64,000 nt of DNA. Source: Narcine bancroftii. Lineage: Eukaryota. The translations under genes were made by a program, and so were the position numbers. The stretch spans positions 178,188,001 through 178,252,000 of the forward strand of contig NC_091476.1 of assembly GCF_036971445.1 (NCBI RefSeq), written 5' to 3'. Position 1 is the stretch's first letter, and every line of letters begins with the position of its first letter. The notes below the pieces were generated by a model that was not told the DNA's origin, did no database searches, and saw nothing but the letters and a program-made list of their open reading frames with translations. Positions 11,487 to 14,210 of this stretch are shown piece after piece.

Positions 11487-11656
11487 CTCCTCAACATCTC
11501 TGATGGTTGCCCATCACCTAGGCTGTCATCAGCTAGTAATTGGGCAATACAAGTCTCCTTAGATGGCTGAGTACGCCACAGAATAGCCGTCTTAAGCCTG
11601 TCACATGGGAGATTATCATTTGGATTCACTAAGACATTCTCCACTTCACAGGCAAT
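11487..11656 (-). repeat. 170-bp near-identical copy of Gypsy gag segment 13731-13900
   Basis: Direct comparison gives 2 mismatches in 170 bp. Confidence 0.92.
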
Positions 11657-12056: not shown

Positions 12057-12692
12057 TGTACGAAGAGTGTTAGAAATAGAAGTACCTTAACGGAAATTGC
12101 TCGAGACAAAAATTGAGAACAAAGAACATTTATTATAACAACAATGCAAAGTTGGGTGCTTCCCCTTACCCTGGGAGTACACACATACACTTGGGCTCAC
12201 CCAACTTTTATACAGTGAATTTCAGTATCAGAATACCCTCCCCCTTACATTCTTCTGCCTCCTGGATGGGTTTGGGATTAGGCAATCCTTCCTGCCTACG
12301 TGCAGTTTCTGTGAACTTGGAGGACCAGGGGTATCGGTGTCTCATCATCATGTCATTATCCTCATTGTCCTTATTCACAACCTTGCCCTTGTCCCCATTC
12401 ACACCTTAGGCTTACTAATTATATATGTTGAACTTGGTACTTCTGTCTAGGGCTAGGAGACCCTTATCTCAACCAGACTACCTCTACTTCCTACATTCTA
12501 TTATTCCTTGCCTCTCTTTATCTTATTCATATGGTGGGCTAAAAGGTTCTTATCTTACATAGGCTGACTCTGCTTCCTGCATCCTAATTTCCATGCTTAG
12601 CCTGTTCATACTGGTTGAATCCATCACTCCATGTGTCTGTACTAGTTTCCCCATCTTTCATATTTTCATGTCAAGTTTACTCATCTCTCACA
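12057..12692 (-). mobile_element. Possible solo LTR
   Basis: TG...CA ends; on the minus strand TATAAAA (~12206) precedes AATAAA (~12130); no matching TSD found. Confidence 0.35.

Positions 12693-12832: not shown

Positions 12833-12910
<78 letters not shown>
12826..12910. repeat. (CACC)n followed by (CA)n microsatellite
   Basis: Directly visible. Confidence 0.98.
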
Positions 12911-12913
<3 letters not shown>

Positions 12914-12973
12914 GCATTGGCAAACATTTGGCCCACATGGATGCATCACCACCTGCTGTTAATGCTGCCTTTA

Positions 12974-14210
12974 ATTGTCAATGGGAATGCTCAATGAGAC
13001 CGTTGGCCTGTGGATGGTAAGCCATAGTGTGAATGTGGGTAGTGCACAAAAGATCAGTGGCATCTCGAAACAACACCAACCTGAATGGAGACCCTCGATA
13101 ACAGTGACCAGAACACCCGAGAAACTGTCTGAGGAAAAGAGAGCAGCCAATGTGCCCGTTGGCAGCAGTTACCTCTACTGGCAGGCTTGGTCATTTCCCA
13201 ACTGCCATTTGTAGAAGTCACAAGGTGGCTGACAGGACCAGGCAGCAGCGCCAAATCTCCAATGCTTCCAACAAAGATGCTGTCCGTCACCTCTAACATG
13301 TCCTTGACCACCACAATTCCAACCAGGTCGACGGAAGGAATTCCTTTGCGTGCCCAAAGCCTGGATCTGTGTAGTCAGTGCTGCCATTTGCTGCTCCAAC
13401 TCAGTTATCTTCGTTTGATACGGTGTAGGTGCTGTCTTCATTTGAGAAGATGCTGGTACTACCTTTGATTGATAAGGTGCTGGCACATCACAAGGTGCAA
13501 TAAGCAGCTGTTCCAGTTCCATTAGCTTCAGCTGACTAGGGAAGAAGCCAATCTTTCTATCTTCAATGCGGAGGTCGTGGGCATAACAAGGTCAGCATGA
13601 TCTGCCAACTGATCAAGGATGGACATTGGAAAGGCACTCACCAAATGCTGTTGAACATGATGAGGTAAACATCGAAAAAAATTTCCAAAAATTGCCTTTG
13701 ACACAGTCTGTTCCAGCTAGCTTGTGCCACCTCCTCAACATCTCTGATGGTTGCCTATCACCTAGGCTGTCATCAGCTAGTAATTGGGCAATACAAGTCT
13801 CCTTAGATGGCTGAGTACGCCACAGAATAGCCGTCTTAAGCCTGTCACATGGGAGATTATCATTCGGATTCACTAAGACATTCTCCACTTCACAGGCAAT
13901 CTGGCTTGGAAGATGCTCCACAAATCAATCTTCTGACTTGTCACACTGAGGGCAGAGAAGCATGCCTCGAGGATCGTGAACCATGCTGGTGCATTATTTA
14001 TAAAAAGGAAGAATCTTCAATTTGACCTCCCTAACTGCTACTGTAAGGAGTTTATCCTTATCATTATCCATTTTAAATCAGAAGTCTGCGTGTTCAAATC
14101 ACGTTGGGGTCACCACTTGTAACAGCACTGATTCACGATAGCTTTTATACATATGCGCACAGGCACACACACACACCCCATCACACCACTACTTAGGTGA
14201 TCACGTTCAA
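12974..14210 (-). mobile_element. Gypsy LTR retrotransposon remnant (LTR end, PBS, gag, start of protease)
   Basis: LTR end ...gttaCA, then ag, then TGGTGACCCC; gag ATG at 14071; CWKHWRFGAAAWSCQPPC gag knuckle; protease-like region near 13100; frameshifted. Confidence 0.85.
14077..14115 (-). other. Extended primer-binding site complementary to the 3' half of tRNA-Trp including CCA
   Basis: Plus strand atcagaagtctgcgtgttcaaatcacgttggggtcacca versus recalled vertebrate tRNA-Trp ATCAGAAGGCTGCGTGTTCAAATCACGTCGGGGTCACCA. Confidence 0.85.

Follow-up and report, generated by a model that had tools for sequence, protein, structure and literature searches.

A 39-nt copy of tRNA-Trp beside the LTR end of a Gypsy-type element of Narcine bancroftii, with similar extended copies in many LTR families

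Introduction

How does a retrotransposon come to carry, between its long terminal repeat (LTR) and the start of its gag gene, a copy of tRNA-Trp that runs well beyond the canonical 18-nt primer binding site (PBS)? The question is raised by a locus on the minus strand of a 64,000-nucleotide stretch of the Narcine bancroftii genome (assembly GCF_036971445.1, contig NC_091476.1, positions 178,188,001 to 178,252,000), here termed the window. A first-pass annotation, made from the letters of the window, reported a 39-nt tRNA-Trp match that ends at A38, just before a gag ATG. The report is confirmed by comparison with the genome's own tRNA-Trp. The explanation proposed here, with a probability of roughly 0.87, is that the match was copied from mature tRNA-Trp, that such copies are carried by a minority of the members of many LTR families, and that plus-strand strong-stop DNA ran beyond m1A58, halted short of G37 and then paired with a short box of matching sequence. 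We infer these steps from features that the genomic copies display directly. The match is present, is rare inside each family and recurs in many families; its ends are clustered, changes are in excess at position 58, and the sites of rejoining can be read.

Results

The LTR-end dinucleotide CA is at 14119-14118 on the minus strand and is followed by a 2-nt spacer and then by the tRNA-Trp match (14115-14077). Five nucleotides separate the end of the match from the gag ATG at 14071-14069. The reference was the genome's own tRNA-Trp(CCA) gene (locus L012, detected by aragorn) with CCA added, and the window is identical to this mature tRNA at 37/39 nt, from tRNA position 76 to 38. The two mismatches are at positions 66 and 46. 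Position 66 is a CpG site and shows the same change in 18/70 extended copies, and position 46 is changed in 3/69. Beyond nt 18 the match holds at 20/21 positions in a fixed place (p ~1.5e-11, by arithmetic), and a pattern derived from the window has 15 genomic matches, one of them the tRNA-Trp(CCA) gene L012, vs 0 for the reversed control. Chance is therefore excluded as the origin of the match.

Alignments to the tRNA and to family copies divide the region into segments, all on the minus strand. Segment 14116..14144 holds the 3′ LTR-end sequence of the 5′ LTR, with the spacer, and aligns to family copies from 14144; upstream of this the LTR is unrecognisable, with a score of 47 vs a shuffled mean of 55. 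The 11-nt PBS common to normal family copies (14105..14115) corresponds to tRNA positions 76-66 and has one CpG change at 14105. Positions 65-59 (14098..14104) extend the match to the canonical 18-nt stop, and family copies that end at 18-22 nt exist. Positions 58-47 (14086..14097) run through the T arm and represent read-through beyond A58, which lies at 14097; the expected base is retained at position 58. Positions 46-38 (14077..14085) are in register with a 9-nt box in the leader of the family, the putative landing site of strand transfer, and the native leader restarts for 5 nt at 14072..14076. In all, 33 nt of leader are replaced by 39 nt of tRNA sequence. The last 9 nt of the match also fit the native leader of the family at 8/9, so that the A38 boundary in the window copy alone is no proof of a stop there. 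Copies that have no help from the leader box show the same end points.

The element is a decayed one, with ~30 nt of recognisable 5′ LTR, a broken gag and most of pol deleted. Gag (13175..14071, minus strand) has stops and frameshifts and an N-terminal DUF7041 domain (Pfam PF23055, E=1.1e-06); the family alignment spans 13111-14144. Gypsy elements have reverse transcriptase (RT) before integrase; in the family, a putative RT motif is found ~1.7 kb after the PBS and an integrase-like piece further on. The window copy has an integrase-like fragment (12896..13117, minus strand) beyond a large internal deletion, recognised by blast to family copies, and then a (GT)n run; the match to Pfam rve_3 is weak and below the cut-off (E=0.085). 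A search for the 3′ LTR of the window copy found none. Both outer ends, where the 4-bp target site duplication of CsRn1 elements would lie, are missing, and the ends of two old copies are indistinct. Within-window repeat comparison reveals a local duplicate of 170 bp (11487..11656, minus strand) of the gag piece 13731-13900, 2.2 kb off and, at 99% identity, recent. By eye, the minus strand at ~12070-12560, bounded by TG and CA and containing a poly(A) signal, resembles a solo LTR of another family.

Two marks of the CsRn1 clade of Ty3/Gypsy elements are a CX2HX9CX3C Gag motif and a 12-nt tRNA-Trp PBS, according to the part of the source consulted (PMC2582038). A CX2HX9CX3C (CHCC) motif is found in the translation at 13220..13273, read from 13273 on the minus strand, and normal family copies start with the published 12-nt tRNA-Trp site. 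In these two sequence features, PBS and Gag motif, the window element agrees with the CsRn1 clade. No sign of function is seen in the window copy. In contigs of one sequencing run guessed to be RNA, fragments of the family are all that is found. The first-pass annotation saw the extended site as a would-be target of 3′ tRNA halves. A 39-nt 3′ tRNA half is predicted to pair strongly, at -66.9 kcal/mol with the window copy vs -34.3 with a normal copy, but the window copy is a decayed one.

The extended site is not a trait of the family. The closest relatives were taken as the best 30 loci, i.e. the window and 29 others at ~80% identity, from 40 scored of 1430 candidates in a DNA search. Among these 29 closest copies (best 30 of 40 scored) the 39-nt extension occurs in 0/29. 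They pair with the tRNA over ~11 nt, two having the site partly deleted, and have a short leader that closes in the 9-nt box, with the same 5 nt preceding the ATG. In pattern counts, short junctions number 98 exact, or 375 if as many as 2 mismatches are allowed. For an 18-nt site the exact junctions number 20, and at the same tolerance there are 222, from mixed families. Of the 20, 17 belong to the window family, with ends at 18-22 nt in 6 and at ≥38 nt in 11. Thus a tRNA-matching site of at least 18 nt is present in 17/115 exact junctions of the family, and long sites in ~11/115 well-preserved junctions; the latter proportion, ~10%, is an upper estimate because junction variants beyond the two patterns were left uncounted. 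In a sister family, 6 copies have a PBS that can be read, and it is short in these as well. The long site is accordingly a minority condition. A 39-nt PBS fixed in this Gypsy lineage might be suggested by the eight copies that share it and by the resemblance of the normal leader to tRNA 46-38 at 8/9, yet the 98 short vs 11 long exact junctions, the 0/29 among the closest copies, the short site of the sister family and the 12 nt given for CsRn1 elements in the consulted part of PMC2582038 leave this reading practically untenable.

Several features of the shorter sites may be mentioned here. In seven copies (L174, L176, L182, L187, L193, L195 and L199) the site was re-copied to 18-22 nt and the leader is rejoined at differing points. 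The normal family site resembles an 18-nt PBS with a 3-nt deletion. L191 and L198 have the same six bases after 18 nt, which by eye look like a fold-back onto their own LTR.

Extended copies are found far outside the window family. A T-arm pattern with position 58 left free has 106 matches vs 5 in the control. From these, 100 distinct loci were examined and were kept if they had a PBS match and ≥28 nt. At least 70/100 loci are PBS-linked extensions with 30-50 nt of tRNA-Trp, distributed over ~25 LTR clusters (26 by upstream sequence, where the window copy counts as a cluster of its own only owing to its truncated LTR). The 30 loci dropped include 3 tRNA genes, chance matches and copies that are probably real but degenerate (L001, L089, L105, L146, L151, L159 and L167). 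The first-pass annotation had asked whether the 39-nt site is general in its family or a one-off event. Neither applies: most members are without the extension, yet its presence in ~25 clusters makes it no isolated accident.

The arrangement of these copies bears on whether the tRNA sequence came from DNA, either through conversion with a tRNA gene or as an inserted tRNA pseudogene made by a LINE. The genome does contain tRNA-Trp genes and decayed copies of them that could serve as donors. Nevertheless, CA occurs 0-2 nt before the site in 53/70 extensions, and 11 more are in two known LTR families, while a poly(A)-type run is present in 0/70; register with the PBS holds for all 70 by selection. 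A DNA-level source would also yield neither the changes at position 58 nor the ends at 38-40 and 50 nt described below, and it is very improbable. What is joined to the LTR end is a contiguous copy of mature tRNA, from the CCA past position 58, as expected of over-extended plus-strand strong-stop DNA.

Two young LTR families account for 1477 matches; among the first 30, the site stops at exactly 18 nt in 29, and ten distinct copies of these families (<1%) reach 30-39 nt. A third family, sampled irrespective of extension, has 22/25 short sites, one of 18 nt and two that are extended. Modest outside support comes from sequencing-run contigs that diverge from the window exactly at 14077, six from the same organism and two from a second organism.

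Half of the extended copies (35/70) end at 38-40 nt. When the 15 copies that belong to two rejoining hotspots are set aside, 22/55 end there (p 2.7e-6 vs uniform), 17/55 end below 38 nt and 16/55 past 40 nt, four of these at exactly 50 nt. An independent anticodon-arm pattern has 24 matches vs 3 in the control. Ten of the matches are exact: 4 are tRNA genes, and the other 6 all end at exactly 50 nt, directly before G26, although two of the six may be one duplicated event and one has no clear LTR. Two further matches with 1 mismatch, behind LTR-like ends, reach ~59 and ~68 nt. In six non-hotspot copies the tRNA sequence ends at 34 nt; this is the base of the anticodon stem, and a structural pause there is possible.

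Dimethyl-G26 is probably present on tRNA-Trp. This modification is found on many tRNAs, as stated in the parts seen of PMC7293042 and PMC11417395, and m1G37 is found on human and bovine tRNA-Trp (PMC7200024, Table 1). By analogy with these other vertebrates, the peaks at 18, 38-40 and 50 nt would sit just 3′ of RT-blocking modified bases.

An alternative view of the end points, raised in the first-pass annotation, is that the family primes with, or copies, the 3′ half of tRNA-Trp, the 39-nt end being the end of the half. Ends at 41-42 nt do fall in the anticodon loop, in 7/55 non-hotspot copies. The modal end, however, lies 3′ of the anticodon; most copies pair over 11-18 nt only, the family-wide site matching the CCA end over 11 nt; and copies at 50, ~59 and 68 nt need an intact tRNA. 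The suggestion has not been borne out and is quite improbable.

At position 58, 17/70 extended copies are changed (10 C, 6 A, 1 G) vs 13/371 at six unconstrained T positions (Fisher p 1e-7), a comparison that favours 58, which was free in the search pattern while changes at other sites cost a mismatch. Transversions are 7/70 vs 5/371 (p 8e-4). In a fair count the signal is weaker: 8 copies are changed at 58 alone vs 0-3 at other sites, except for position 57, which also has 8; the excess at 57 is ascribed to a second tRNA isodecoder (genes L122 and L274). The bases found at 58 are the usual products of m1A miscoding. An m7G signature was looked for at position 46, and no enrichment was found (3/69). 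The changes at 58 and the ends at 38-40 nt support the part of the first-pass annotation in which RT was said to have passed A58 and reached G37; its attribution of this capture to the lineage is at odds with the 0/29 among the closest copies (best 30 of 40 scored).

Where the element resumes after the tRNA stretch varies. In the window family, 8 copies, the window copy included, rejoin at the 9-nt leader box, which matches tRNA 46-38 at 8/9. Another 8 rejoin ~1.7 kb on, at an 11/11 match to tRNA 48-38 in RT coding sequence, with the intervening part deleted. These are the two best-conserved tRNA matches in the element; among 10 longer copies, the leader match is present in 7 and the RT match in 6. 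The remaining copies rejoin at scattered sites or inverted; in L086, L138, L139, L192 and L201 the element continues inverted past the tRNA stretch. Copies of the young families rejoin at the unrelated internal offsets 52, 189, 1933, 3155 and 3333. They have 0-3 nt of homology there and mostly end at 36-39 nt, so that the end point is independent of a box. Five of them (L007, L008, L010, L011 and L014) run on into DNA unmapped at the junction, and no clear target-site duplications were seen in the 3 such copies checked.

The eight leader-rejoined copies might descend from one extended master that was still replicating. The 39-nt site would then be a sub-lineage trait that originated by a single read-through event. 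The eight have the same junction, it preserves the gag start, and a single clade of leader-rejoined copies is not rejected (AU p 0.49). Against this, they differ from one another at tRNA position 58 (T,T,A,A,T,T,C,T) and at 57 and 40, and their mutual identity (0.818) does not exceed that to normal copies (0.829). Nor does the label cluster on the LTR tree, where 7 rows need 7 changes and shuffled labels need 6.5 on average, and a second hotspot exists at the coding-sequence match. For neither hotspot group do AU tests reject one origin (p 0.49 and 0.31), the trees being star-like. The gag tree contained 6 extended and 29 normal copies, L111 being excluded for too little gag, and the LTR tree 58 copies, with the window copy, L058 and L060 excluded. 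A single master thus appears unlikely, and the differences at 58, 57 and 40, with the lack of excess identity among the eight, favour repeated read-through events. It is also conceivable that a long-site copy, while still replicating, takes up the tRNA sequence anew in every round.

Discussion

Repeated read-through can be set out as a sequence of steps. RT would copy the tRNA primer while it is still attached, and sometimes bypass m1A58, often miscoding it. Its halts would lie for the most part 1-2 nt short of m1G37, in fewer cases directly before G26 and rarely in the D arm. The over-long 3′ end, unable to pair beside the PBS, would pair at a microhomology further on, after which the DNA would be completed and would integrate. 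A landing at the leader box, the one proposed for the window copy, would keep the gag start; landing elsewhere would delete or invert part of the element.

HIV RT is able to pass m1A58, and minor products end at the modified base 37 (PMC13191261, section 10; PMC8599865, in the part seen). In HIV-1, the P2-P4 products alone are said to be active templates, and the product that ends at base 37 cannot serve as one (PMC13191261). The present copies resemble the over-extended HIV-1 products P3-P5 in that RT has gone past m1A58 and stops at later modified bases. They differ in that P5-type ends are here integrated in germline Gypsy-type elements, in that the tRNA is tRNA-Trp, and in the extra stop before G26; they are known from genomic copies alone. 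Products called dead ends in HIV were here completed and integrated.

A primer over-extension sequence has been described in lentiviruses and spumaviruses (Muthuswami 2002, as related in PMC13191261). It is a tRNA match beyond A58, downstream of the PBS, and completes the transfer of over-long DNA. The lentiviral sequence adjoins an 18-nt PBS and serves products that end near position 55. In the window family, by contrast, the PBS is 11 nt and the box, ~13 nt further on and thus not adjacent to it, matches 46-38. In a retroviral vector, Pulsinelli and Temin in 1991 reportedly observed plus-strand strong-stop DNA that terminated late, within the tRNA, then transferred at small homology and gave deletions that contain tRNA sequence. 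Their mutants came from a single round of a vector, whereas the present copies are a population of germline retrotransposons with a ladder of ends; the vector study is likely a precedent for the rejoining.

The nematode element Cer7 reportedly has a long tRNA-derived PBS. The part of PMC554778 that was seen does not mention it. The CsRn1 elements share the 12-nt tRNA-Trp PBS and the CX2HX9CX3C motif with the present family, and no long PBS is described for the clade in trematodes and insects in the part seen of PMC2582038. Retroviruses can inherit a tRNA copy at the PBS, while Ty1 and Ty3 strictly inherit their own PBS, as stated in the portion consulted of PMC7472051. The Gypsy family described here departs from the rule given there for Ty1 and Ty3, in that 17 of its 115 exact junctions carry the longer tRNA-matching site. 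No genomic record of such a read-through ladder in retrotransposon copies was found in the literature searched, which lay outside Repbase, Dfam and most subscription papers. The chemistry is known, from HIV in vitro, and the setting is new.

The 9-nt box is present at 8/9 in 17/26 normal copies (shuffle p 0.003; the copies are one lineage and so one test), and a similar box is present in the sister family. The box may be due to chance, may be a relic of earlier read-through, or may be selected. The whole normal leader was considered as an old read-through relic: the median shuffle p is 0.028 for 26 family copies, but a control family with an 18-nt PBS gives 0.014, so the signal is unspecific and the 9-nt box alone stands out. 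In L206-L209, of a young family with an 18-nt PBS, a 9/11 match to tRNA 48-38 is found in the leader, ~79 nt past the PBS, and no copy was seen to rejoin there. A further proposal, possible but tentative, is that the box has been retained as a second place to land. It would be the counterpart, acting at long range, of the over-extension sequence of lentiviruses, and would rescue m1G37-stopped plus strands into copies with an intact gag start. On the same tentative footing, the leader of short-PBS CsRn1 families would be renewed regularly from the tRNA, and in any genome the fossil LTRs would map germline tRNA modifications (58, 37 and 26).

The read-through rate appears ~10x higher in two short-PBS families (~10%; 2/25) than in two 18-nt-PBS families (<1%), a difference confounded with age. 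The copies provide in vivo germline numbers for the frequency of m1A58 bypass, for the stop points and for the fate of the products, where knowledge of this step has come mainly from work in vitro. Judging from the ladder of ends, old LTR copies may serve as a record of past tRNA modification, much as a primer-extension assay would.

Two individual loci may be added. Loci L014 and L015 (G000:C22), 5.8 kb apart, carry identical extended junctions in tandem. L280 (G000:C15, near 64,718,600) is a family copy with ~68 nt of tRNA-Trp, nearly the whole molecule, and has a 1-nt loss at 58-59.
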